Part shown: in pieces, positions 3,508 to 21,905 of the stretch
How positions within the stretch are numbered: position 1 is the first letter of the stretch
Layout of the letters: every line of letters starts with the position of its first letter
Source of the DNA: Dehalococcoidia bacterium
Lineage (GTDB): Bacteria > Chloroflexota > Dehalococcoidia > Lucifugimonadales > UBA3495
Length of the DNA stretch: 64,000 nt
Direction: 5' to 3'
Assembly: GCA_965116565.1 (NCBI GenBank)
Contig: OZ220699.1
Location: 3,790,849 to 3,854,848 of the forward strand
The notes under the pieces: generated by a model
The model's database searches: none
Seen by the model: the letters and a program-made list of their open reading frames with translations, nothing else
Told to the model about the DNA's origin: nothing
Made by a program: the position numbers and the translations under genes

Positions 3508-4854
3508 CTATTGAGCAGTTGGTCCGTCCCCCCACGGCACCTCCGGCAGATTGCGCTCGCGGCGCACCTCGTTGATGGTGATGACGCCGCGATCCAGCAG
3601 AGCCGTCTCCCGCTGCACGCGGCTGTTCTCGTCCTCCTGCAGCGCCTCGACCACCGACAGGTCGAACTCCACCGTCAGCTGCGGGTAGCCCAGCTTGGGC
3701 AGCAGGGCGCGGTTCACCTGCTCCTCCAGGAACTTGACCTCCGGCACCACGGTGTTGCGCCAGAACATCCTCTCCGACGCCTGCACGTTGGCGTACGTGG
3801 CCCGCTCGAAATCGCCCAGCAGCAGCTTGGGCACGCCGTAGGTGCGGCTGACCTCCTCAAGGCTCCAGCGCAGCCCCTGGATGAAATCGATGTCGCGGTG
3901 CGACAGCCCCAGCGTTTTCACGTCTCGCACGGCGGAGGCCACGGCGGGACGGTGGGCATTGCCGGGACCCTGATACCGCTGCTCCCATCGGGCGTAGAAG
4001 TCCTCGAGTTCGGCGTCGTTCATCTCCTGGTTGGTCAGCAGCAGGAAATCGGGCCGCGCCGAGTTGCGCAGCAGGTGCCGGTTGAAGTGCAGGCCCTCGT
4101 GCCCCATGTCCGCCGACAGCCGCGCCGGCGCCAGCGGCGAGAGGCCGGCCATCTCCTCCAGCGGGTTGAAATAGCGGAGCCACACCACCTCGTCGGGAGT
4201 GTAGGCCACCTGCTCCACCGCGCCGCGATACACGAAGCCGCGCACGTAGCGCCGCCGGTCGGGAATCACGGCCATGCGGTCGGGACGCAGGGGCCACAGT
4301 TCCGGCTCACCGTCCTCGCCGCGCTCGATGGCCCAGAACGCCGCGCCCCACAGGCACAGGTAGATCTCGGTGGCGCGCCACAGGTCGGCGCGGGTGTACC
4401 ACGGGTTGACCCGCTCCAGCAGCCGCGACACCGGATGGGACGCCTCAACGGGTACGCGCCGCTCGCCCTTTGCCTGTGGTTCGACAAGCTCACCATGAGC
4501 GGCGCTTCTCCGCTCACCCTGTGCTTCGCTTCCCCGCTCACCCTGAGCCTGTCGAAGGGCCGACTCCGTTCGGTACACGCGCAGGAGCGGCCGCGTCACC
4601 GCCTCAGAGCGCAACCTCACCGCGGAGTACACGGACGGCGACGTCGCCATGTAGCGCCCATATTCCGGACGCGCCCAGCCCTCGGCGCCCGCGCCAATCC
4701 CCGCATCGCCGCTCATCCTGAGCCCGTCGAAGGACGCCGCCGCCGCGCGGTTGGCCCGCTGCACCACGACGCCCGGCCCCCTGCCATCTTCGTCCTTTCT
4801 GGAAAATGCACGCAGCATCTTTCCGATTCCCAACATCATACTCCTGACCTCCAA
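3508..4854 (-). CDS. Phage portal protein (HK97-like family)
   Basis: 448-aa ORF with portal-typical C-terminal two thirds (LWPLRPDRM..., FNRHLLRNSARPDFLL, GVPKLLLGDFERATYANVQASERMFW). It overlaps the TerL stop by 19 nt. Confidence 0.85.
   Translation of the reverse strand: MEVRSMMLGIGKMLRAFSRKDEDGRGPGVVVQRANRAAAASFDGLRMSGDAGIGAGAEGWARPEYGRYMATSPSVYSAVRLRSEAVTRPLLRVYRTESALRQAQGERGSEAQGERRSAAHGELVEPQAKGERRVPVEASHPVSRLLERVNPWYTRADLWRATEIYLCLWGAAFWAIERGEDGEPELWPLRPDRMAVIPDRRRYVRGFVYRGAVEQVAYTPDEVVWLRYFNPLEEMAGLSPLAPARLSADMGHEGLHFNRHLLRNSARPDFLLLTNQEMNDAELEDFYARWEQRYQGPGNAHRPAVASAVRDVKTLGLSHRDIDFIQGLRWSLEEVSRTYGVPKLLLGDFERATYANVQASERMFWRNTVVPEVKFLEEQVNRALLPKLGYPQLTVEFDLSVVEALQEDENSRVQRETALLDRGVITINEVRRERNLPEVPWGDGPTAQ
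4480..4556. repeat. REP/MITE-like inverted-repeat element inside the portal gene (in frame)
   Basis: Arms TTCGACAAGCTCACCATGAGC (4480-4500) and GCTCACCCTGAGCCTGTCGAA (4536-4556) are near reverse complements. Translated in the portal as LRQAQGERGSEAQGERRSAAHGELVEP. Confidence 0.7.
4711..4733. repeat. Half copy of the same REP-like motif (GCTCAYCCTGAGCCYGTCGAAGG) inside the portal gene
   Basis: GCTCATCCTGAGCCCGTCGAAGG. Read in frame as FDGLRMSG in the portal N-terminus. Confidence 0.65.
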
Positions 4855-6383
4855 TCGTTATGTTCACCAAGGCCGTCCAGCCAGAACTCATCGGGATCGT
4901 CGTCGAGAAACGCCAGCATCAGCGCGTCGGCCTTGTCCGGCGACTGAGCGCCGCGTTTTCGCATGCTCTCCTTGCTTTCCATGAGCAGGCGGCCGCGGCT
5001 GTTGTAGCGGTAACGGAGCGACGCCAGTTCCGAGATCAACTCGGTGTCGCGGGGGATGCGGATGCGACGGTCCCGAAACCGTCCGGCCAGCAACCGGTAG
5101 CCCTCGGCGCGCAGGTTGGCGCAGGTGCGGTCGCGCCGCGGCCCCTCGGCCACGTTTATTCCCTGGGCGCGCACTCCCTGCTCCCGCAGGCGGTCAACCA
5201 CGCCGGCTCCGACCCCGATGTCGTCCACGTTCACCGCGTCGGGACGGTGTTCGCGCACCGCCACCATCACCCGGCCCACGGCGGACATGGTGTCCATGCG
5301 GGAGAAGGCGCGGATCGACTCCACGCGGTCGCCGCGCCGCATCAGCACCACCGTGCGGTCGCTGCCGAAGCGGGCCACGTCCACGCCGACGACCACGCGC
5401 CCGTATCCGCCCATCGATGAACCCGCCGAGGGCCCCATGCCGGGCAGAAACAGGTCGAACGGATCGTCCTGGACCGTCTGTCTCCATGCTCCAACCGCGC
5501 CGGCGCGCTCATCCTGAGCCTGTCGAAGGATGGGCGCATCCTCATCCTCCTCGTAAATCGCCGCGTTAATGTCCTCCATTGAAATCAAGTTGTCCTCCCC
5601 TCGCAGCGGGAACTCGCCCCGCACTCTGGAGCGGAACAGGTCGCTGTTCTCGCCCCAAACTTCGCGGCGTTCCTCCACCCACTCCGCCGTGGTCAGGCCG
5701 GCAATTTCGATGCGGCCCTCCCTCACGTTGGGCGACTCCAGCGCCGATATCGTGATCGGGCGGTAGATGCCTATCTCCTCGTGGAACGCCCGGTGAAACG
5801 GCCCGGACGTGGATGTGGGATTGCCGATGAGCAGCAGCGTCGGGTTCTGCGAGGTCATCACCGAGTCGATGGCCTCGTAGATCTCCTCGTCCACCCCCTC
5901 GGCCTCGTCAACGACCACCAGGACGTTGGGGCAGTGGAACCCCTGGAACTGGTCCGCGCCGTCGGCCGACAGCCCCAGGGCGTAGCGGTCCTCGGCCAGA
6001 TCCCAGCGGGTGTCCAGCATCGTGCCGCCCAGCATGTCCGCCGCGCCGCGATGCAGGCGGTGGATCTGCCGCCACAACACGTGGCGAACCTGCCGGAAAG
6101 TCGGCGCGGTGCTCAGAACGATGGCCGGGTCGTGGCAGTGCAGGTACCACAGCACGGCCACCGCCGCGATGAAGTCCTTGCCCAGGCCATTGCCCGACTT
6201 GACCGCCACGCGCCGCTCCCGCATCACCGCGTCCAGCACCTCGCGCTGCTTTTCCCAGGGGTCCACCCCCAGCACGTCCGTAGCGAACCGCAGGGGATGG
6301 ACCCAGTTTTCGTTGCCGCCGGCCCGGAACCGGGACAGGTCCGGTTCCGGCCGATCGAACTCCGACAGATCAGGTTCCGACAA
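4836..6383 (-). CDS. Phage terminase large subunit (TerL)
   Basis: Contains a Walker-A-like VKSGNGLGKD, Walker B VLVVVDEAEG and a C-terminal RNase-H-like nuclease motif VGVDVARFGSDRTVV. The ORF-track start is a TTG and the frame stays open upstream, so the true start is uncertain. Confidence 0.85.
   Translation of the reverse strand: MSEPDLSEFDRPEPDLSRFRAGGNENWVHPLRFATDVLGVDPWEKQREVLDAVMRERRVAVKSGNGLGKDFIAAVAVLWYLHCHDPAIVLSTAPTFRQVRHVLWRQIHRLHRGAADMLGGTMLDTRWDLAEDRYALGLSADGADQFQGFHCPNVLVVVDEAEGVDEEIYEAIDSVMTSQNPTLLLIGNPTSTSGPFHRAFHEEIGIYRPITISALESPNVREGRIEIAGLTTAEWVEERREVWGENSDLFRSRVRGEFPLRGEDNLISMEDINAAIYEEDEDAPILRQAQDERAGAVGAWRQTVQDDPFDLFLPGMGPSAGSSMGGYGRVVVGVDVARFGSDRTVVLMRRGDRVESIRAFSRMDTMSAVGRVMVAVREHRPDAVNVDDIGVGAGVVDRLREQGVRAQGINVAEGPRRDRTCANLRAEGYRLLAGRFRDRRIRIPRDTELISELASLRYRYNSRGRLLMESKESMRKRGAQSPDKADALMLAFLDDDPDEFWLDGLGEHNDWRSGV
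5507..5529. repeat. REP-like motif copy inside the terminase gene (in frame)
   Basis: GCTCATCCTGAGCCTGTCGAAGG. Translated in TerL as ILRQAQDER. Confidence 0.65.
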
Positions 6384-7003: not shown

Positions 7004-8011
7004 ATGTTCGCCCAACTAATTAGAGAATTGAACAGGATGCAAGGCCCAATCCAACTAACAACCAGCGTTGAGATAGATGACAAAGGTTATTTGGACCGCT
7101 CCTGTCCATCGGACGAATGCGGCGAACGATTCAAGGTTGCTTTTGAAGAATGGCAAAGTTTGGTGACCGAACAATCTATGTGGTGCCCTAGATGCGGACA
7201 TGCGGAAGGTTCGGCGTCGTGGAGCACGCCTGAACAACGTGAGCAGCATTTAAGCGAGGCACGTAACTACGTGCGGAAAAGAATCGGCAATGCGATAAAT
7301 CGACAAGCTCGAAGCTTCAACGCGCAACAAAAACCCGGAAGTTTCATCAAGATGCGGATGTCGTATCGGCCAGGCCGCCCCGAGTTAGTGATGCCCGCCA
7401 AAGCCTCGGAGGTGATGACACAAGATTTCCGGTGTGAACACTGCGCATGTAGATACACGTCGATTGGAGCGGCATTCTTCTGTCCCGCGTGTGGCAAGGA
7501 CTCTATATTGGCAAACTTTTGGACCTCATTGGAAACCACGAAACTGACCGTGCGCAACATCACCGCACTGCGTCAGACCATGGAGGAACTATCGGGGAAA
7601 GATGTTGCAGCGGATATGAGCCGGCAACTCCTAGAAGAGGCTTTGGGAAAAGTGGTTGCATGTTTTCAGAAATTTGCCGAGGTACGTTTCTTAGAGTTGA
7701 AGAACGCGATCGATTTTGAGATCCGCCCTAACCTCTTTCAAAACCTCGCAGAATCTGACAGGATTTGGCGTGCAGCAATATCCACTGGATACACCGATAT
7801 CTTGACCAACAATGAATACCAACGATTGGTGGCTTACTTTCAACAGCGCCATGTATTGGAGCACCAAGACGGATTCATCGATCAAATGTATGTTGACCGT
7901 ACGGACGACCGACGGTTTAAAGTTGGACAGCGGTTAGTGGTAACAGACGATGGTGTGCTAGATCTAATCGCGCTGTGCGAAAAGCTTGCGCAGGGCATTA
8001 ATTCCCATTGA
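7004..8011 (+). CDS. Double zinc-ribbon protein with C-terminal HEPN-like Rx4H motif; hypothetical
   Basis: 335-aa ORF in an AT-richer segment. Cys motifs: CPSDEC...CPRCGH and CEHCAC...CPACGK. The C-terminal helical region contains QQRHVLEHQDG (R-x4-H). Confidence 0.6.
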   Translation: MFAQLIRELNRMQGPIQLTTSVEIDDKGYLDRSCPSDECGERFKVAFEEWQSLVTEQSMWCPRCGHAEGSASWSTPEQREQHLSEARNYVRKRIGNAINRQARSFNAQQKPGSFIKMRMSYRPGRPELVMPAKASEVMTQDFRCEHCACRYTSIGAAFFCPACGKDSILANFWTSLETTKLTVRNITALRQTMEELSGKDVAADMSRQLLEEALGKVVACFQKFAEVRFLELKNAIDFEIRPNLFQNLAESDRIWRAAISTGYTDILTNNEYQRLVAYFQQRHVLEHQDGFIDQMYVDRTDDRRFKVGQRLVVTDDGVLDLIALCEKLAQGINSH

Positions 8012-12168: not shown

Positions 12169-12798
12169 TTGATGATCAGCGAAATCGGGTCGCATCCCAG
12201 CGATGGGCGACCGCTGCTCCTGGTGGAGAACCAGGAGGAATGGCGAACGTGGTTGGCACAGAACCACGGTGATTCTCCCGGCATCTGGCTGGTGTCGTGG
12301 AAGCAGGCTACCGGCAAGCCCTTCGTGCCCTACACGGACACGGTGGACGAGGCCCTGTGTTTCGGGTGGATCGACTCCAGGGTGAACACGCTGGACGACG
12401 AGCGGGCCATGCGCCTGTTCACCCGCCGCAATCCCAAAAGTCCGTGGTCGCGCATCAACAAGGACAAGGCCCTGCGCCTCATGAAACAGGGCCGCATGAT
12501 GGAAGCCGGCGCGAGGATGCTGGCGGCCGCCCAATCCAACGGCGCGTGGACCATCTACGACGAGATCGAGGACCTGGTGGTCCCGCCCGACCTGGCCGCC
12601 GCCCTGGCCCACAACGAGGCAGCCCAAACCCACTTCAACAACTTCCCGCCCTCATCCAAAAAGAACATCCTCTGGTGGATCAAATCGGCCCGCAAACCCG
12701 ACACGCGGGCCGCCCGCATCGCTAAAACCGCAGAACTGGCCGCCCAAAACCGCATCGCCAACCACCCAGCAGGGCGCAACCAGGAGCGGGGCGAATAA
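12169..12798 (+). CDS. YdeI/OmpD-associated family protein
   Basis: ALCFGWIDSRVNTLDDERAMRLFTRRNPKSPWSRINK and a C-terminal ...WWIKSAKKPDTRAARI pattern, typical of this family. Confidence 0.7.
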   Translation: MMISEIGSHPSDGRPLLLVENQEEWRTWLAQNHGDSPGIWLVSWKQATGKPFVPYTDTVDEALCFGWIDSRVNTLDDERAMRLFTRRNPKSPWSRINKDKALRLMKQGRMMEAGARMLAAAQSNGAWTIYDEIEDLVVPPDLAAALAHNEAAQTHFNNFPPSSKKNILWWIKSARKPDTRAARIAKTAELAAQNRIANHPAGRNQERGE

Positions 12799-12812
12799 GT
12801 GACATTTGATGA

Positions 12813-14966
12813 TTGACAATGCTACCGCATGCGTTGTTAGGATCGCACAGCGAATCTCCAAAAGCGACTCAAATGCACTACGACGAGAAACAAGCCCTCG
12901 AACTGCTCCGTGTAGGCGCAGGCATCGCCGATGCGCAATTTAGGGAGGGACAAGAGGAAGCCATCCGCCATGTTGTGGAAGGACGAGGCAAGTTGCTGGT
13001 CGTCCAGAAAACGGGCTGGGGCAAGAGCTTCGTCTATTTCATTGCGACCAAGCTGCTGCGGGAAGGCGGTGCTGGCCCGGCCTTGCTGATTTCGCCCTTG
13101 CTGGCGCTGATGCGAAACCAGATAGCGGCAGCGAAACGCATGGGCGTCCGAGCGGTTACCATCAATTCAGACAATAAAGATGAATGGGATGATGTGGCGC
13201 GCCGGATAAGCATGGATTCAGTCGATATCCTGCTCATCTCCCCGGAACGGCTGGCCAACGAGGATTTTGTCGCCAACACTCTTGCTGCTATGGCGGCGCG
13301 GGTATCGATGCTGGTCATCGACGAAGCCCATTGCATTTCCGATTGGGGCCACGATTTTCGCCCCGACTACCGGAGAATTGAACGCATCGCCCGCACGCTG
13401 CCGGAGAACATCCAACTACTAGGAACAACGGCAACTGCGAACAAGCGCGTGATGGATGACCTTGAGGAAATCCTTGGCCCAAATATAACGACGTTGCGAG
13501 GAGACCTCAACCGCCCCTCGCTGCTGCTGCAAACCATCCGGATGCCGAGTCAAGCCGAAAGGCTAGCGTGGCTGGCGGAACGATTGTCGGAGATTCAACG
13601 TTCCGGAATAATTTACACATTGACCAGACGCGACGCTAGACAGGTATCTGATTGGCTCCAGTCTCAAGGCTTGAACGTTCAACCGTATATGGGCGGTTCC
13701 CGAAATCAGGAAGAACGGGACGAGAGAGAACGGTTAGAAGATGCATTGCTGGAAAATCGCGTCAAGGCACTGGTCGCAACGGTGGCCCTGGGTATGGGTT
13801 ACGACAAGCCTGATTTGGCTTTCGTCATCCATTACCAGACGCCTGCGTCGGTAGTGCATTATTACCAGCAGGTTGGGCGTGCCGGGCGGGGGTTGGACGC
13901 CGCGCACGGTGTACTGTTAAGCGGTGTCGAAGATACAGAAATTACGGACTTTTTCATCCGCAGCGCTTTTCCGACCAGGGAAGAAGTACAGCAGGTAGTC
14001 GCAGCTTTGAGAGACGAGCCGGAGGGCCTTTCCGCACCTCAATTGCTACAGCAGGTCAACATCAGTACCGACCGTCTTGCCCGGGCCATAAAGTTGCTGT
14101 CTTTGGAATCTCCGGCACCCATCGCCAGAGTGGGAACAAAATGGCAATTGACTCCAACACTACTCAACGAGGAATTCTGGGAACGGGCGGAAAGGCTAAC
14201 TGCGCTACGCCAAGCCGAGCAGCAACAAATGCAGGAATATGTGGCATTGGATTCTGGACATATGAAGTTCCTCATTCGCGCCTTGGATGGCAACCCGGAG
14301 AGCGTTCAAACTCCAAACATGTCGCCTCTTCCCACCAACGTAGGACCAGCAACCGTGCATCAGGCAGTAGAGTTTCTCCATCGCACACGAGTGACGATTC
14401 AGGCACGAAAAAGATGGCCAAACGGCGGTTCGCCGGGTGACTGGATGCGCGGCAACATACCTAAGGAACAACGGGCGGAGGATGGCTTTGCGCTGTGCTA
14501 TTGGGGCGATGCCGGCTGGGGTGATACAGTTCGGAATGGAAAATACCGTGATAATTACTTTGCGGATGAGTTGGTGACGGCTTCGGTGAATCTGATAAAG
14601 GAATGGCAACCGCGACCCTCTCCAGCTTGGGTAACCTGCATCCCCTCGAGAAGACACCCAGAACTAGTGCCGGATTTCGCTGAACGACTGGCTAGAGCGT
14701 TAAAACTGCCTTTCAGTCCTTGTTTGGTCAAAGCCGATGACCGGCCGGAACAAAAAGATATGGCTAACAGCGCGCAACAGGCGCGGAACGTTGATGGCTC
14801 ACTTGGCTTTTCTCAGGGCCCAGTTTTGCCGGGGCCTGTCTTGCTTGTGGATGATATGGTAGATTCCGGCTGGACATTTACGGTTGCCGCGGCGCTGTTG
14901 AGAGAGCGAGGATGTAGTGCAGTATTTCCATTCGCGCTTGCGGACACTGGCAACCGACAGGGCTGA
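12813..14966 (+). CDS. RecQ-family helicase fused to a C-terminal ComF-type phosphoribosyltransferase domain
   Basis: RecQ motifs: [50 protein letters not shown]-terminus carries [10 protein letters not shown]...[13 protein letters not shown] (PRPP-binding signature). Segment is AT-richer than its flanks. Confidence 0.85.
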
Positions 14967-14967
14967 G

Positions 14968-16266
14968 ATGATGAGTACCAGATTATCTCCCAATACCCAA
15001 GCAATTCTGCTACTGACAGCTCCTTTGATTGTGGGTAGAGGCGGGAGTAAAAATTCGGTAACGCCGCTGAGCCTCGCCGAGTATAACCAACTCGCGCTGC
15101 GCCTCTGTCAATTTGAGTGGCAACCGGCCGACCTGCTTGGTACTGAAGCTCGCGCTGTATTGAGCGAGTGTGCCGACGACGCTGACAACCAGCGAATTAT
15201 TCGGTTGCTGGAGCGGGGCTTTCTACTTAGCCAAGCACTGGAGCATTGGCAGAGCCGCGCGATTTGGGTGACCAGTCGAGCTGATGCTGAATACCCTATA
15301 CGTTTCAAAGAGCGCCTCGGCAAGTTTGCTCCCCCGGTCCTTTACGGCTGCGGTAACGCAACCCTGTTGGAAAATGGTGGGCTGGCTGTAGTGGGTTCAC
15401 GGGATGCAAACGCTGAGATTCTAGAGTATGCCGGCAGCGTTGGTCGATTAGCGGCAGAAGCACAATACCCAATCATTTCTGGCGGCGCGCGTGGGGTTGA
15501 TATGGCAGCGATGCGCGGAGTGTTGTCAGAGGGTGGTACGGCCGTTGGCATCTTATCCGGCGGCTTGGAGAAAGATGCAATGAACCGGTCGAACCGGGAC
15601 TTGCTGATCAACGAACAATTGGTCCTAGTCTCTCCATACGACCCGAAGGCAGGTTTCAATGTCGGCAATGCCATGCAGCGCAACAAGTTGGTATATGCGT
15701 TGTCTGACACCGGACTGGTGGTTGAAACTGATACAAAAGGTGGCACTTGGACGGGCGCCTTGGAGCAACTGGACAAATTGCACCTGGTTCCAATATATGC
15801 CCGCTCTGAAGGTGAAATCAGTAAAGGCATCAGTGCGTTGCGCAGGAAAGGAGCGTTGGCTTGGCCAAACCCTGAAACAGCCGACGACTTGCGCGCAGTT
15901 ATCTCCGGAGAGTATCAATATCCCGACGCCGAACCTGCCCGTCAGCCATCTTTGTCTTTAGATAGTGACGCTCCAACTGAACCACATAAACATGATGCAG
16001 ATGGGCAAATCGTGAAGCCTGTACTGGATATTGAGCCGTTAAACCTTCAGCAAACAAATCTAGCCGACCAGCTTTTGTTGTCAGTTGAACGTCTCTTGAC
16101 ATCAATTGATGGGCCCATTACAGCTTCTGACGCCGCGAAGCGCCTTCACGTTTCCAAAAAGCAAGCAGGAGACTGGCTAAAACGGCTTGAGCAGGCGGGG
16201 AAGTACCAACGGAGGAACAAGCGCTCGCCTTATGAGCGGGTTACCCAAGTCAATTCCTTGCTTTAG
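14968..16266 (+). CDS. DprA/Smf-like (SLOG Rossmann) protein with C-terminal wHTH-like tail
   Basis: [10 protein letters not shown]...[15 protein letters not shown]...GILSGGL...[11 protein letters not shown]...GGTWTGA. The tail [31 protein letters not shown] looks like a wHTH. ATG at 14968 lies 1 nt after the upstream TGA. Confidence 0.85.
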
Positions 16267-16377
16267 TGGCCGCTGAGTCGTCGTCCTTGCCCCCACCACC
16301 ACCCCCTGCTAAACTGCGGCGCATCACATCACACCACACCTACCTGACCCGCGTTCCGCAGCAAAGGAGCCGCCGTT

Positions 16378-17640
16378 ATGCTGATTGGCCATTTCACCGA
16401 ACAGCCCTGGCAGGATGAAAACTCCGGCCTCATGGGCACCCAGAGCACCGACCTGGGCATCTCCAACTCCCACTACCGACCCGATATCGGCGCCCAGCTC
16501 TACAATCGCTACCTTGACGAAAAGGTCTATGCCGAGCAGATGGGCTTCGACGCCGTCATGCTCAACGAGCACCACTCCACTCCCTTCTGCATGCAGGGCG
16601 TCACCAACGTCGGCGCGTCCATCCTCGCCCGCATCACCGAAAAGGTCAAGATCATCATCCTGGGCAACGTCCTGCCCATCTGGGACGACCCCCTGTGGCT
16701 GGCCGAGCAGCTTTCCATGATCGACATGATCTCCCACGGCCGCCTGGTCTCCGGCTTCGTGCGCGGCGGCGGACGCGAGAGCTGGTCCCACAACTCGCCT
16801 CCCAACTTCAACCGCGAGCGGTTCGAGGAAGCCCACGACCTGATCATCAAGGCGTGGACCGAGCCCGGCCCCTGGCGCTGGGAGGGCAAGCACTTCCACT
16901 ACCGCTACGTCAACCCGTGGGCCAAGCCGCTGCAGGAACCCCACCCACAGATCTGGATCCCGTCCACCGTGTCCGTCGAGACCGTGAAGTGGTGCGCCGA
17001 GCATCGCTACCCGCTGGTCCTCCTGGCCACCCGCCTGGAGCCCACCCGCGAAGCCTTCCAGCTCTACCACGACACCGCCGCCGAGTGCGGCTACGAGTCC
17101 GGCACCCAGAACGTCGCCTACCTGTGGAAGGTCCATGTCGACGAGACCGAGGAACTGGCCGAGGAAGTCGGCCGCAAGTACCTGTCCGGCGTCAGCAACC
17201 CCTTCCTGGCCGGCAACGAGGGCGGCATCAACCCCGCCATCATGAACCTGCCGGGCCACACGTCCCGCACGTCGCGCCGCCTGTCCGCCGCCGCCTTCGG
17301 CCCCGCCGGACGCTTCGGCACCAACCGCCGTCCCTTCGAGGACCAGGTCGCCGACAGCACCATCATCACCGGCACCCCCAAGACGGTCATCCCCAAGATC
17401 CGCGAGGTGCTGGAATACCTGCGCCCCGGCAGCGTCTTCTTCTGGGACGGCGACGGCGCCATGACCCACGAGGACCAGATGCGCAGCCTGCGGCTCATGG
17501 GCGAGGAGGTCATCCCCGCCGTCCGCGAAATGGGCAAGGAGCTTGAGCTCTACTCCCCCTTCGAGGTGGACCCCCGCACCAACCAGCCCATCGTGGCCAG
17601 CGCCACCGCTGCCGAAACCGCGACCACCACCGCCGACTAG
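16378..17640 (+). CDS. LLM-class (luciferase-like) flavin-dependent oxidoreductase
   Basis: GFDAVMLNEHH... and overall LLM layout. AAAGGAG lies upstream of the ATG. Confidence 0.8.
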   Translation: MLIGHFTEQPWQDENSGLMGTQSTDLGISNSHYRPDIGAQLYNRYLDEKVYAEQMGFDAVMLNEHHSTPFCMQGVTNVGASILARITEKVKIIILGNVLPIWDDPLWLAEQLSMIDMISHGRLVSGFVRGGGRESWSHNSPPNFNRERFEEAHDLIIKAWTEPGPWRWEGKHFHYRYVNPWAKPLQEPHPQIWIPSTVSVETVKWCAEHRYPLVLLATRLEPTREAFQLYHDTAAECGYESGTQNVAYLWKVHVDETEELAEEVGRKYLSGVSNPFLAGNEGGINPAIMNLPGHTSRTSRRLSAAAFGPAGRFGTNRRPFEDQVADSTIITGTPKTVIPKIREVLEYLRPGSVFFWDGDGAMTHEDQMRSLRLMGEEVIPAVREMGKELELYSPFEVDPRTNQPIVASATAAETATTTAD

Positions 17641-17832: not shown

Positions 17833-18918
17833 TCAGTCAAACAGATTAACTAATCTCAACCGTTTGGAATGCCAGTTTTCTACAGGCAGCACAGGAGGAG
17901 CGTCCGGAAAAGAGAGATCCGTGCGCGGCATTGTTGATCGGAAATAATCCTTGATGGCGTCTTTTCTCTCATCTGTATAAGCCTCCCAGACCTCTGGATA
18001 TACAACAATGCCTTCCATGCGCCCTAGGAGATCACAGCTTACCCTGCGCTGCAGCGTTTCTGCGTCAGCGTTGCGAACATGCCACGTTGCTTTCCGTATT
18101 ATTGATTCGTCTGCGGATGGGAAGTGATATATCAAGATGTGCTCGTTCTGCAACGGATAAACAGTACATCCCCATTGACCAATCTTTTCTACAACAATGT
18201 CATCTAGTCCTCGTTCTACCCACCACCTCAACCCGTTGGTCCATGAACTGACGGCAATGGAAGGCCGCCTGCTTGGCACTGGTACTACGAAGTGCTTGAT
18301 AACGTCAGGTTCTTCATCGTAAGGTGATGGTTGTTGTGCTATACCCAGCATCACCTCAGTTAGGCGTTTGTAATATCCGATACCAGATTCTTTCTTCCGA
18401 CACAATCGGACCATGTAGTTAGGAAAGTCACTTTTAGGATCCGCTTTCTCCATGCTCTCAAATGCGGCCAGTTGCACCTTGATGTCCCACATAGCCTTCA
18501 GCAATGCCTTATACGCAAGCAAAATCAAGTGCCGCTCGTTTTCGAATTCAGGGACGCACCGCTCCACATCGGAGAACAATCCTTCGTGATTTCTGCAGGT
18601 GAAATACCCCGTCAAGGCATGGTTGATTGGTACTTCGTCCGGGAACCGCATGTCATCGACTAGCGGATTTTGGGAGAACGCCATAACATAAGGCTTTTCC
18701 GTCCACCGGCGCATAACTGCGCGCTGAACGTCATGACCTTCTACAGTCGGCCCTCCGTGCTCACCTGGAACTAAACACTGTTTCAAAGCAGTTCTTTTGG
18801 TTTTAGCGGTCAGAATTTGCAGTATCCTTTTCTGCTCACTTTCTGGCATTGTCACCAGTTCATTATGGAATTGTTTTCCCCACCAGCGTGGCGGCCATTC
18901 GTTATTCATGCTAGCCAT
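17833..18918 (-). CDS. Hypothetical protein (361 aa), AT-rich orphan
   Basis: Long clean ORF in a markedly AT-richer segment bracketed by the two GGGGCGAAT palindromes. No motif recognised. Confidence 0.6.
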   Translation of the reverse strand: MASMNNEWPPRWWGKQFHNELVTMPESEQKRILQILTAKTKRTALKQCLVPGEHGGPTVEGHDVQRAVMRRWTEKPYVMAFSQNPLVDDMRFPDEVPINHALTGYFTCRNHEGLFSDVERCVPEFENERHLILLAYKALLKAMWDIKVQLAAFESMEKADPKSDFPNYMVRLCRKKESGIGYYKRLTEVMLGIAQQPSPYDEEPDVIKHFVVPVPSRRPSIAVSSWTNGLRWWVERGLDDIVVEKIGQWGCTVYPLQNEHILIYHFPSADESIIRKATWHVRNADAETLQRRVSCDLLGRMEGIVVYPEVWEAYTDERKDAIKDYFRSTMPRTDLSFPDAPPVLPVENWHSKRLRLVNLFD

Positions 18919-19814: not shown

Positions 19815-20201
19815 CTATCCCGATATCCCAGCCGTCAGCGGCCCAATCGTAACCGCGCCGTTGTCGATCACCTCGGCGGTGAGCAGGCTGCCCCACAGCA
19901 GCGCGGTCCCGATCAGCGGATCGCCTTCGGCCTCAAGTATCTCGACGGGTCGCCTTTCTCCCCGCCAGAGAACAATACCCTCATATGCAGTAACGGTGAT
20001 GACCAAGTCGTTTGCCAACCCCATGTCAACCGGTTCAGTGGCAGGAACCCCCAATTGTCGGATCAAATCGGATGGCAAAGCCAGGTAGCCATTGAAACCC
20101 GTATCGACTACGGCCTCGACACGGTGGACGTGTTCGTTCGTATCCAACAAACCAACAGGAACCCGAAGATCGCCCCGAACGCCTACGTGACCGGAAATCA
20201 A
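19815..20201 (-). CDS. Retropepsin-like clan AA aspartic protease (DTGF type), cassette copy 1
   Basis: AVVDTGFNGYLALP catalytic motif plus C-terminal IGTALLWGSLL. The TTG start overlaps the upstream stop (TTGA). Confidence 0.7.
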   Translation of the reverse strand: MISGHVGVRGDLRVPVGLLDTNEHVHRVEAVVDTGFNGYLALPSDLIRQLGVPATEPVDMGLANDLVITVTAYEGIVLWRGERRPVEILEAEGDPLIGTALLWGSLLTAEVIDNGAVTIGPLTAGISG

Positions 20202-20470
20202 GGCGCGTCGTACCTGATTCGGGGACCGTGGCTATGGTACGGCGCCGGAAAACCTATCCGCATCAGGTAGGTGACCGCGTCCGGCGATTTGGCCTTCAAC
20301 TTGTGCCGCGCCGTAATGACATCACGGTCAATGGCGTAATCCCCGGATGCAACGTCAATCACCAGGAACTTGCCCTTTTCCTGCGGCTCGACCAGCGGCT
20401 TGATCTTCTCGTTGTAGATCCTCCAGCCCAACTCGCGGGTCTTTTCAAAATCGGTTTCAGGCGTCGTCAT
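20198..20470 (-). CDS. Small partner protein, cassette copy 1
   Basis: MTTPETDFEKTRELGW...GKFLVIDVASGDYAI. GAGGTGA lies 7 nt upstream of the ATG at 20470. Translationally coupled to the protease. Confidence 0.65.
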   Translation of the reverse strand: MTTPETDFEKTRELGWRIYNEKIKPLVEPQEKGKFLVIDVASGDYAIDRDVITARHKLKAKSPDAVTYLMRIGFPAPYHSHGPRIRYDAP

Positions 20471-20524
20471 AGCAGATTCACCTCGCGCGTTCGCCAACCA
20501 TCCGCCGGTGCGATTTCCACTAGC

Positions 20525-20911
20525 CTATCCCGATATCCCAGCCGGCAGCGGCCCAATCGTAACCGCGCCATTGTCGATCACCTCGGCGGTGAGCAGGCTG
20601 CCCCACAGCAGGGCAGTGCCGATGAGCGGTGTGCCTTCGGCCTCTAAAATCCGGACCGGTCGCTGATCCCCACCCCAGAGCACAGTCCCCCGAAATGAGT
20701 TGAACCTGAAGGCCTCCTCGTTGACCACGAGCGCCTCAACCTGTCGATCCATCACCAGGCCGAGTTCGCGAATATGGTCAGACGGTAGGGTCAGATCTCC
20801 GGTGAATCCGGTGTCAACGATCCCTTCGAATCGGTGGACATGCCCATCGGTGTCCAACACCCGTATGGGCACGATCAGTTCTCCCTCCGGGGTTACGTTT
20901 CCACCTGTCAT
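20525..20911 (-). CDS. Retropepsin-like clan AA aspartic protease (DTGF type), cassette copy 2
   Basis: GIVDTGFTGDLTLP, and the same C-terminal 35 aa as copy 1. ATGA overlap with the upstream small gene. Confidence 0.75.
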   Translation of the reverse strand: MTGGNVTPEGELIVPIRVLDTDGHVHRFEGIVDTGFTGDLTLPSDHIRELGLVMDRQVEALVVNEEAFRFNSFRGTVLWGGDQRPVRILEAEGTPLIGTALLWGSLLTAEVIDNGAVTIGPLPAGISG

Positions 20912-21180
20912 GACTTGTCGTACCGAATCCTCATACTTGGCAAGCGAAACGGCGCCGGGTATCCGATCCGAATTGTGTAAACAACGCCATCGGGCCGACG
21001 AGCTTCCAACTCGTCCTCGGCCAGTATGAGGTCACGGTTGATCGCGTAGTCTCCCGTGGCAACGTCAATCACCAGGAATTTGCCCTTTTCCTGCGGCTCG
21101 ACCAGCGGCTTGATCCTCTCGTTGTAGATCCTCCAGCCCAACTCGCGGGTCTTTTCAAAATCGGTTTCAGGCGTCGTCAT
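20908..21180 (-). CDS. Small partner protein, cassette copy 2
   Basis: N-terminal ~50 aa nearly identical to copy 1; C-terminal ~40 aa divergent. Confidence 0.65.
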   Translation of the reverse strand: MTTPETDFEKTRELGWRIYNERIKPLVEPQEKGKFLVIDVATGDYAINRDLILAEDELEARRPDGVVYTIRIGYPAPFRLPSMRIRYDKS

Positions 21181-21234
21181 AGCAGATTCACCTCGCGCGT
21201 TCGCCAACCATCCGTCGGTGCGATTTCCATGCGC

Positions 21235-21642
21235 CTATCCCGATATCCCGGCCGTCAGCGACCCAATCGTAATCGCGCCGTTGTCGATCACCTCGGCGGT
21301 GAGCAGACTGCCCCACAGCAGCGCGGTCCCGATGAGGGGTGTATTTTCGGCTTCGAGAACCCGAATCGGCCTTCGTTCTCCCCTCCAAATTGCTATCGCG
21401 AAGTATGAATTGACCTCAAAAGTTCTGCCAGTGGCCACCACCATGTCTATGCGTTGAGAGAATCGCAACCCCATGGCTCTGATCTGCTCAGGCGACAGCG
21501 ACAGATACCCTTCAAACCCCGTATCCACCACGGCCTCGGATCGGTGGACGTGCTCGTTGGCATCCAACAATCTGACCGGCACCACCAGTTCGCGATGCGA
21601 ATTGACATGCCCTTCAATCATGACTACGTTCCCGTGTCCCAC
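21235..21642 (-). CDS. Retropepsin-like clan AA aspartic protease (DTGF type), cassette copy 3
   Basis: AVVDTGFEGYLSLS with the conserved C-terminus. The start may instead be MIEGHV at 21621. Confidence 0.7.
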   Translation of the reverse strand: MGHGNVVMIEGHVNSHRELVVPVRLLDANEHVHRSEAVVDTGFEGYLSLSPEQIRAMGLRFSQRIDMVVATGRTFEVNSYFAIAIWRGERRPIRVLEAENTPLIGTALLWGSLLTAEVIDNGAITIGSLTAGISG

Positions 21643-21905
21643 AAAATCCGAGGAGTAAGCAAACGGAATACTGCCGGATGTCCGATCCTGACGGTATGGA
21701 TGACGGCATCGGGATAGCGGTCCAGCAGATCCTGGGTCGCGTATCCCAGGTCGCTGCCAATAACATAGTCTCCCGTCTTGATGTCCAGCACCAGGAACTT
21801 GCCCTTCTCCCGCGGATCCACCAGGGGCTTGATCTTCGTCTCGTAGATCTCTTTACCCTTGGCGTAGTTCTTCCTGGCTTCGTCGTCCATGGTCGGGCTC
21901 GACAT
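21624..21905 (-). CDS. Small partner protein, cassette copy 3 (divergent)
   Basis: MSSPTMDDEARKNY...GKFLVLDIKTGDYVI...VRIGHPA. GAGGAGG upstream. Confidence 0.65.
   Translation of the reverse strand: MSSPTMDDEARKNYAKGKEIYETKIKPLVDPREKGKFLVLDIKTGDYVIGSDLGYATQDLLDRYPDAVIHTVRIGHPAVFRLLTPRILWDTGT

Follow-up and report, generated by a model that had tools for sequence, protein, structure and literature searches.

We analyzed a 64,000-nt stretch of contig OZ220699.1 (the window) from GCA_965116565.1, a metagenome assembly of a Dehalococcoidia bacterium. A two-gene insert of ~3.5 kb in this stretch is set between a ydeI-like gene and a gene for a luciferase-like monooxygenase (LLM) oxidoreductase. 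We found that the two genes are very probably PsyrTA (RqlHI), a toxin-antitoxin (TA)-type anti-phage module that entered a hotspot of defence genes in a Dehalococcoidia/SAR202-type Chloroflexota genome by horizontal transfer. The initial annotation of the window had taken the pair for an uncharacterised architecture bridging ShosTA and PsyrTA. No new system is present: a helicase fused to a phosphoribosyltransferase (PRTase), followed by a DprA-like partner, is the canonical PsyrTA/RqlHI.

Both gene products match PADLOC models of PsyrTA from end to end. The PsyrT model matched residues 21-714 of the longest open reading frame (ORF) of gene 1 over model positions 1-686 of 689 (E 1.1e-273). The PsyrA model matched residues 20-440 of the longest ORF of gene 2 over positions 2-395 of 398 (E 9.6e-127; 421 bits). 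A chance match is excluded at E values of 1e-273 and 1e-126. When sub-regions were scanned singly (the linker and PRTase domain of PsyrT, the N-terminal domain and tail of PsyrA), the best match was always PsyrT or PsyrA. The linker alone matched PsyrT model positions 356-514 (98 bits), and the PRTase domain alone scored 230 bits on PsyrT and 23.8 bits on ShosT (PRTase core only). ShosA matched gene 2 at 85 bits, over residues 99-281 (the Rossmann core) only. The pair thus combines a RecQ-like core, a C-terminal PRTase with a loop for phosphoribosyl pyrophosphate (PRPP), full-length profile matches and an abutting same-strand DprA/SLOG partner. Assignment of both genes to an already described system is the outcome that the initial annotation itself had named as fatal to its claim of novelty.

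This architecture has been described repeatedly. RqlH of Mycobacterium smegmatis (691 aa) was defined as a RecQ-like ATPase followed by an RqlH-specific linker, a tetracysteine Zn module and a ComF-like/PRTase C-terminal domain, without an HRDC domain, and homologues were noted across many phyla, Chloroflexi included (Ordonez, Unciuleac, Shuman 2012, PMC3378886). In Escherichia coli, RqlI is a downstream DprA homologue that restrains RqlH, and rqlH always lies upstream of rqlI (Russell and Mulvey 2015, PMC4670107). PsyrTA was equated with RqlHI and listed among phage-defence systems in 2022; PsyrTA and ShosTA are alike in having a PRTase toxin and a DprA-like antitoxin (Millman et al. preprint). 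The pair had looked novel because PsyrT was taken to be 'RecQ only', although RqlH has included the ComF/PRTase C-terminal domain since 2012.

The window pair aligns over its full length with a pair from an E. coli IncF plasmid (NZ_OX030731.1, locus L082). In the plasmid pair, a 710-aa 'RecQ family ATP-dependent DNA helicase' is followed by a 462-aa 'DNA-processing protein DprA', with overlapping stop and start codons. The plasmid proteins score 1019 bits on PsyrT and 577 bits on PsyrA, with a ShosA side-match of 97 bits. Identity between the window and plasmid proteins is 47% for PsyrT (over 697 aa) and 35% for PsyrA (end to end). The published mutation sites of E. coli PsyrT, K49, D148 and the DIVD loop, correspond to K51, D150 and D661-M-V-D664 of the window protein, and the plasmid homologue carries VLLVDDIVDSGWT at the position aligned to the PRPP loop. 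The L082 allele is also present, on the chromosome, in 53 of 5,426 complete E. coli genomes, where it is always named generically RecQ/DprA.

We made two further observations on E. coli copies. On the conjugative plasmid of L082 (596-10675), PsyrTA is nested in a Type I restriction-modification (R-M) operon with the gene order hsdM, hsdS, psyrT, psyrA, hsdR. In NZ_CP124405.1 (H19), an IS3-family element splits a psyrT homologue, leaving a C-terminal fragment that bears the annotation 'ComF family protein'; a comparable split of rqlH was described in Shigella sonnei 53G (Russell and Mulvey, PMC4670107).

The fusion is common. A survey of RecQ-PRTase fusions, suggested with the initial annotation, was made by searching the whole library with the non-helicase half of PsyrT (aa 361-697), which found 320 protein clusters at E<=1e-30; with the threshold relaxed to E<=1e-10, the number was 991. 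We take the same fusion to be widespread because full-length members of the family are 680-750 aa long and match at ~355-700. The pair was found on plasmids in 11 records, and a search of the phage collection with the non-helicase half of psyrT gave no match.

Domain structure of PsyrT and PsyrA

The longest ORF of gene 1 (12813..14966, + strand) begins with TTG at 12813 and ends with TGA at 14964-14966. The true start is almost certainly the ATG at 12873, because the PsyrT model match begins at residue 21 of the long ORF and because the public gene call is 697 aa long, as are many of the closest homologues (others are 675-712 aa). We therefore place psyrT (rqlH), a putative toxin gene whose product joins a RecQ-like helicase to a ComF-type PRTase, at 12873..14966 (+; 697 aa).

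The N-terminal part of PsyrT is a superfamily 2 (SF2) RecQ-like helicase core (aa 1-360; 12873..13952, +). It contains motif I (GWGK51S) and motif II (D150-E151-AH), and it matches Pfam DEAD (90 bits) and Helicase_C (51 bits) and RecQ cores in the PDB (1e-51). The protein passes TIGR00614 recQ_fam (239.5 bits; cutoff 219.8). ATPase motifs I, II and VI are intact, and K51, D150/E151 and QxxGRxGR fall in columns that are at least 90% conserved. A Pfam scan of gene 1 detected no HRDC domain. The RecQ, PRPP-loop and DprA motifs quoted in the initial annotation are all present in the translations.

The helicase core was said to be followed by a ~200-aa linker. The segment exists, but it is not a plain linker: a winged helix and a degenerate Zn module lie in it, and the ComF-like domain has its N-terminal part there. 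An AlphaFold2 (AF2) model of aa 361-697 had a mean predicted local distance difference test (pLDDT) score of 74.7; it consisted of a winged helix modelled with confidence, a stretch of low confidence and an alpha/beta domain. The winged helix predicted within the RqlH-specific linker (aa 369-426; 13977..14150, +) is supported by residues 9-66 of the modelled fragment, which form an H-H-H-E-E arrangement (pLDDT 84-91), and by a weak HTH_11 match.

The C-terminal domain is predicted to be a ComF-like/type I PRTase (aa 492-697; 14346..14963, +), as first annotated; its counterpart in E. coli RqlH is the toxic module (PMC4670107). Pfam Pribosyltran scored 24.3 bits when the full-length protein was scanned; on the isolated domain it reached 27.1 bits, above the gathering threshold (GA) of 26.3. 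Foldseek matched the modelled domain to APRT (9.5e-5), Helicobacter pylori ComF (7p0h, 3.4e-4), ShosT (8zvc, 1.9e-3) and PurF. The highest query-normalised TM-scores were with ComF 7p0h and ShosT (8zvc, 8zvb and 8zvd), alongside APRT and PurF. At the level of structural modelling, AF2 and Foldseek independently confirm the PRTase fold. The predicted PRPP-binding loop (aa 656-668; 14838..14876, +) contains D661-M-V-D664, equivalent to D660-I-V-D663 of E. coli RqlH, and the window residues D660, D661, S665, W667 and T668 are each at least 90% conserved across the family. Relative to orthologues in the same slot (L066 was left out of this comparison), the ratio of nonsynonymous to synonymous substitution rates (dN/dS) was 0.08-0.14 over the whole of psyrT; for the helicase core taken alone it was 0.07-0.13.

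Between the linker and the PRTase lies a degenerate Zn-binding module (aa 453-489; 14229..14339, +), in which G462, two deletions and T480 replace the four cysteine ligands. The cysteine columns (C...CxxCxxC) are 85-87% conserved in 38 distant family members, whereas the window protein has G, gap, gap and T. This loss is not peculiar to the window. Of 117 clusters in the close clade, 115 have Gly in the first cysteine column, and the cysteines are missing from a few distant clusters too; the ORFs are intact and full length throughout. The Zn-less segment has a dN/dS of 0.17-0.25 and a pLDDT of ~40. By the strict 2012 definition of RqlH, which places a tetracysteine Zn module between linker and ComF domain, the window protein would fall outside. 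We have treated the loss as a subclade trait that does not place the protein outside the family, since the match to the family profile continues across that segment. Judged by the alignments, the loss of the four Zn-binding cysteines, under continued purifying selection, is the sole departure from the family.

The longest ORF of gene 2 spans 14917..16266 (+). Its ATG at 14968 follows the psyrT stop codon after a 1-nt gap, as first annotated. We place psyrA (rqlI), the second gene of the operon, which encodes a putative antitoxin of the DprA/SLOG type with a C-terminal winged helix-turn-helix (wHTH), at 14968..16266 (+; 432 aa). The DprA-type Rossmann (SLOG) core (15250..15855, +) matches Pfam DNA_processg_A (124.5 bits) and SLOG cluster4 (LDcluster4; 42.7 bits). 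It contains two arginines predicted to bind single-stranded DNA (ssDNA), R145 (GSRD) and R238 (QRNK). They align with R139 and R234 of ShosA (9vzo) and with R52 and R143 of H. pylori DprA; ShosA needs its two arginines both to bind ssDNA and to act as an antitoxin (PMC12961424). The initial annotation had also noted a wHTH-like tail, which we locate at 16096..16224 (+) by a match to FaeA (22.0 bits; GA 20.7). The tail has further weak matches to MarR, HTH_20 and HTH_29, is covered by PsyrA model positions 320-395, and aligns with the C-terminus of E. coli PsyrA. The dN/dS of psyrA was ~0.09-0.10 where dS was defined (synonymous sites unsaturated).

A variable slot upstream of the LLM gene

The borders of the insert are sharp. 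Blastn similarity to three related loci (L029, L005 and L012) stops at window positions 12784-12790 and restarts at 16280-16284. Relative to L029, which has an empty site, the inserted segment spans 12791..16283 (~3.49 kb; GC ~0.55). The low GC content of the insert had already been pointed out; it is 0.52-0.56, compared to 0.64-0.69 in the flanks. At third codon positions, GC (GC3) is 0.58 and 0.53 in the two insert genes and 0.84-0.93 in comparison genes. The flanking products match OmdA/YdeI (78 bits) and Bac_luciferase (122 bits) in Pfam. A search of the borders for tRNA genes, integrases, direct or inverted repeats and structured RNAs yielded nothing meaningful.

We compared loci with LLM orthologues (82-100% identical) from 80 species-level genomes, nearly all of them metagenome-assembled genomes (MAGs) of Dehalococcoidia/SAR202/Chloroflexota; the bin names of some suggest sponge metagenomes. 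The window proteins were searched with tblastn against these 80 loci and the window's own contig (81 loci). PsyrTA was found in 6 of the 81, directly upstream of the LLM gene: the window, L022, L027, L033, L035 and L066. Identity of the five relatives to the window is 64-82% for PsyrT and 47-62% for PsyrA. In L029, the order HAD-ydeI-LLM-hisA is kept with ~180 nt between ydeI and LLM (~100 nt from the ydeI stop to the LLM promoter), and L005 and L012 have different content between ydeI and LLM. The patchy presence and the empty site bear out the initial view of the pair as an island and not a conserved, syntenic housekeeping pair.

Other relatives carry other defence systems in the same slot. 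Clustering of the upstream genes and scanning of representatives identified Type III R-M (7 genomes), Type IIG (9 genomes), a GmrSD Type IV system, a HerA-type system and a C5-methylase/PDC-M33A system. Across the ~5 kb examined in L002-L081, the sequence comparisons indicate a lineage-wide hotspot for defence genes in the slot that abuts the LLM promoter-like element on its upstream side. That element, TTGCCC-N17-TGC-TAAACT (16287..16315, +), is conserved upstream of LLM orthologues. Among the upstream regions of the 80 orthologues, conservation in closer relatives begins exactly at the element, and everything farther upstream differs. The right border is sharp because the conserved LLM promoter starts there; the element appears to be the fixed right edge of the variable slot and to belong to the host, not to PsyrTA.

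The cassettes also seem to move between relatives. In the same genome pairs, dS was ~0.9-1.0 for psyrT, larger or saturated for psyrA, and ~0.2 for LLM, a contrast that is inflated to an unmeasured degree by the extreme GC3 of LLM (0.93), which depresses its dS. This contrast suggests cassette exchange and not co-descent. Taken together, the empty site, the patchy presence, the R-M systems in the slot, the foreign composition and the dS contrast argue that PsyrTA is accessory cargo of the hotspot. In a further comparison, nucleotide identity to L022 (9697-11262, aligned to window 16063-17639), which is 74% along most of psyrTA, rises to 90% from ~200 nt before the psyrA stop codon onward. This jump suggests a recombination breakpoint within the wHTH-coding end of psyrA.

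A scan of the operon for promoters and terminators found no convincing sites within the tool's spacer range of 16-18. By eye, we noted a possible weak psyrT promoter, TTGACA-N19-TAGGAT (12813..12843, +), which the scan would not call because its 19-nt spacer lies outside that range.

Several neighbouring features were noted in passing. The gap between LLM and hisA, ~0.2-0.3 kb in L003 and L029, is filled in the window by a 361-aa ORF (17833-18918, - strand; GC 0.49) with no Pfam or PADLOC match. After LLM, L012 has a 409-aa ORF that by eye resembles the N-terminus of an MmeI-type methylase, and L005 has a 101-aa ORF that by eye is RelE-like. The gap looks like a second variable slot, with a cargo gene that has no family match. 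Between hisA and hisH (19815-21905, -), a two-gene module is present in three tandem copies, each encoding a 93-99-aa protein and then, with stop/start overlap, a 128-135-aa protein with a retropepsin-like VVDTGF motif. The modules have only a faint match to Asp_protease_2 (15.5 bits), the larger proteins differ little from one another at their C-termini, and the layout is TA-like. Farther away, a 515-aa ORF (4836-6383, -) by eye resembles a phage terminase large subunit; next to it is a low-GC block (0.48-0.51), with a CxxC-rich 335-aa protein at 7004-8011 (+). The terminase-like ORF and this block may be a prophage remnant or another island.

Function and alternative explanations

Published work on relatives of the pair describes a toxin and its restraint. 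The 3'-5' helicase activity of RqlH is independent of the C-terminal domain (PMC3378886). E. coli cells with RqlH but no RqlI induce the SOS response, form filaments and stop growing, and the PRPP loop of the PRTase is required; D663A and DIVD-to-EVME mutations end growth inhibition, SOS induction and filamentation, with a modest loss of viable counts remaining (PMC4670107). E. coli RqlH mutated at the positions equivalent to K51 and D150 stayed harmful. RqlI co-precipitates with RqlH only when the PRTase domain is present (PMC4670107). When cloned, PsyrTA makes cells resistant to phages, and with psyrA deleted it could not be transformed (Millman et al. preprint). The window pair retains K51, D150/E151, the PRPP loop and both predicted ssDNA-binding arginines, and the dN/dS values show purifying selection. 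By analogy, neutralisation of the toxin by its partner and resistance to phage would be expected of the window pair as well.

We suggest a mechanism whose steps are drawn by analogy with ShosTA (PMC12961424, PMC11961720). In an uninfected cell, PsyrA would restrain the PRTase domain. During infection, ssDNA intermediates of phage replication, or a shut-off of host gene expression, might titrate or deplete PsyrA. The helicase-tethered PRTase could then use PRPP, by consuming or transferring it, and so damage DNA or nucleotide metabolism and pools. Replication of phage and host would halt, resulting in abortive infection or growth arrest.

Some findings weigh against this reading of the pair as an anti-phage PsyrTA module, as does the inflated dS contrast described above. 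One E. coli PsyrTA, studied in its native host, did not measurably protect against the phages tested. RqlHI has been argued to be only TA-like, with the toxin gene first and many bacteria having RqlH without RqlI (Russell and Mulvey, PMC4670107). A sequence search of the PDB for a solved PsyrT/RqlH found RecQ cores only, and a literature search for a dedicated structural or mechanistic paper on PsyrTA found none. M. smegmatis RqlH cut to aa 1-465, inside the Zn module, was insoluble (PMC3378886), and helicase function in the cysteine-less clade is assumed by analogy with a family of which ~86% keeps the ligands.

The pair might instead be a purely selfish addiction cassette, maintained through post-segregational killing or genotoxic dependence, that gives no phage protection in this host. 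We consider this improbable. TA-like behaviour of RqlHI is documented in E. coli (PMC4670107), the E. coli PsyrTA from the native-host study caused a growth defect when expressed in K-12, and the plasmid-borne copies would fit such a cassette. However, cloned PsyrTA was reported to be phage-protective, and its systematic co-location with R-M, both in the window lineage and in the E. coli Type I R-M operon, is the usual signature of defence. Moreover, addiction and defence roles are not mutually exclusive.

We think it very unlikely that the genes are a housekeeping pair for repair or recombination, with RqlH standing in for RecQ, a role proposed in mycobacteria, and a DprA paralogue loading RecA, or a competence module like ComFA/ComFC/DprA. 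M. smegmatis RqlH is biochemically RecQ-like, mycobacteria with RqlH lack RecQ (PMC3378886), and links to transformation were discussed by Russell and Mulvey (PMC4670107). Passage of TIGR00614 and retention of the DprA fold with its ssDNA-binding arginines also fit. In contrast, the more specific models failed. For RecQ, TIGR01389 scored 280.6 (cutoff 640.2) and NF008279 scored 210 (cutoff 1015), and assignment to housekeeping RecQ was rejected on these scores and the undetected HRDC domain. For competence DprA, likewise rejected, TIGR00732 scored 89.8 (cutoff 191.15) and NF008007 scored 56 (cutoff 495). No com genes are nearby. The initial preference for a TA or abortive-infection module over repair or competence genes is supported by the empty site in the close relative L029, the presence of the pair in so few of the related loci and the R-M and other defence systems in the same slot; the foreign composition of the insert also speaks against a housekeeping pair.

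Loss of the Zn cysteines could in principle have inactivated the helicase module and left a decaying, non-functional remnant, an explanation to which we give very little credence. All four ligands are absent, AF2 confidence at that segment is low, and the truncated RqlH mentioned above was insoluble. Nevertheless, the loss is common to nearly all close-clade clusters and several distant ones, with ORFs intact and full length, the helicase core and the Zn-less segment both have low dN/dS, and every ATPase motif is intact. Pseudogenisation of psyrT was rejected on the clade-wide conservation and the dN/dS values.

Lastly, a genuinely new hybrid bridging ShosTA and PsyrTA through the helicase-PRTase fusion, to which the single polypeptide with its DprA-like partner and the weak ShosT and partial ShosA matches had lent some appeal, is barely credible: the fusion is the canonical PsyrT/RqlH architecture, described in 2012, 2015 and 2022, its C-terminal half recurs in 320 clusters, PsyrT and PsyrA outscore ShosT and ShosA roughly 10-fold and 5-fold in bits, end to end, and the E. 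coli PsyrTA has the same ShosA side-match.

The main value of identifying the pair as PsyrTA is therefore a correction: an exciting-looking fusion of helicase and PRTase with a DprA-like partner is what defines PsyrTA/RqlHI. The public names 'RecQ family helicase' and 'DprA' hide PsyrTA defence systems. The analysis also documents PsyrTA in sponge-associated or marine Dehalococcoidia, in a defence hotspot that has clear limits and for which an empty site serves as a clean control, and the large subclade without Zn ligands is a natural experiment on how the helicase and PRTase of PsyrT cooperate. Beyond this, we tentatively raise a proposal that is more doubtful than not and has two separate parts. 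The cysteine-less module may define a functional 'Zn-free' PsyrT subclade, to which practically every close Dehalococcoidia-type homologue and a few distant clusters would belong and whose helicase folds and senses DNA differently. The slot before LLM may be a lineage-wide hotspot, free of mobility genes, that swaps whole cassettes by homologous recombination in the flanks.

Comparison with known systems

The window PsyrT shares its SF2 RecQ-family core with canonical RecQ and DpdF helicases, and PADLOC DpdF models have strong partial matches on this core. Assignment to DpdF (7-deazaguanine DNA modification) was rejected: NF041063 scored 164.8 against a cutoff of 550, the neighbours are ydeI-like, LLM and hisA, and no dpd cluster is nearby. 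As a separate observation, PADLOC models PDLC02866 and PDLC02869, labelled 'DpdF', match the PRTase C-terminal domain of PsyrT (window 14313-14963) at 72-74 bits. It appears that RqlH-like C-terminal domains underlie some of the DpdF-labelled models, which could give fragments of PsyrT the wrong name.

The functional trio of helicase, PRTase and DprA in competence (ComFA, ComFC and DprA) is echoed in the window pair, and the PRTase fold is shared with H. pylori ComF (7p0h), which had the joint-highest query-normalised TM-score. The competence set differs in that the window helicase is RecQ-like, not ComFA-like, and is fused to the PRTase, and in that the distribution of the pair is patchy and tied to a defence hotspot.

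ShosTA (E. coli KTE181; 8zvb, 8zvc, 8zvd and 9vzo) shares with the window pair a PRTase toxin that needs PRPP binding and a DprA-like, ssDNA-binding antitoxin. The modelled C-terminal domain of PsyrT has a query-normalised TM-score of 0.30-0.32 with ShosT, and the two essential arginines of ShosA are kept in the window PsyrA. However, ShosT has a pyrophosphatase domain and no helicase, whereas the window PsyrT has a fused helicase, and ShosA does not bind ShosT, whereas RqlI binds RqlH. Membership in ShosTA was rejected on the fused helicase, the low ShosT score and the partial ShosA match.

M. smegmatis RqlH (MSMEG_5935) is similar to the window PsyrT in length (691 and 697 aa), in its ATPase-linker-ComF/PRTase layout and in having no HRDC domain. 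Its Zn module is a tetracysteine one of the CxxC type, and it lacks an RqlI partner; in the window, the cysteines are absent and the partner is present.

The closest likeness is to PsyrTA/RqlHI of E. coli (RqlH and RqlI of F11), named 'PsyrTA' in both PADLOC and DefenseFinder. The window pair differs from it in its host, a Dehalococcoidia/SAR202-type MAG, and in the clade-wide loss of the Zn cysteines. The two systems have the same two genes in the same order, with an abutting start of the partner gene. The toxins have the same order of domains (RecQ-like core, linker, Zn-module position and ComF/PRTase), and the partners have the same three parts: an N-terminal domain, a DprA/SLOG core and a C-terminal wHTH.

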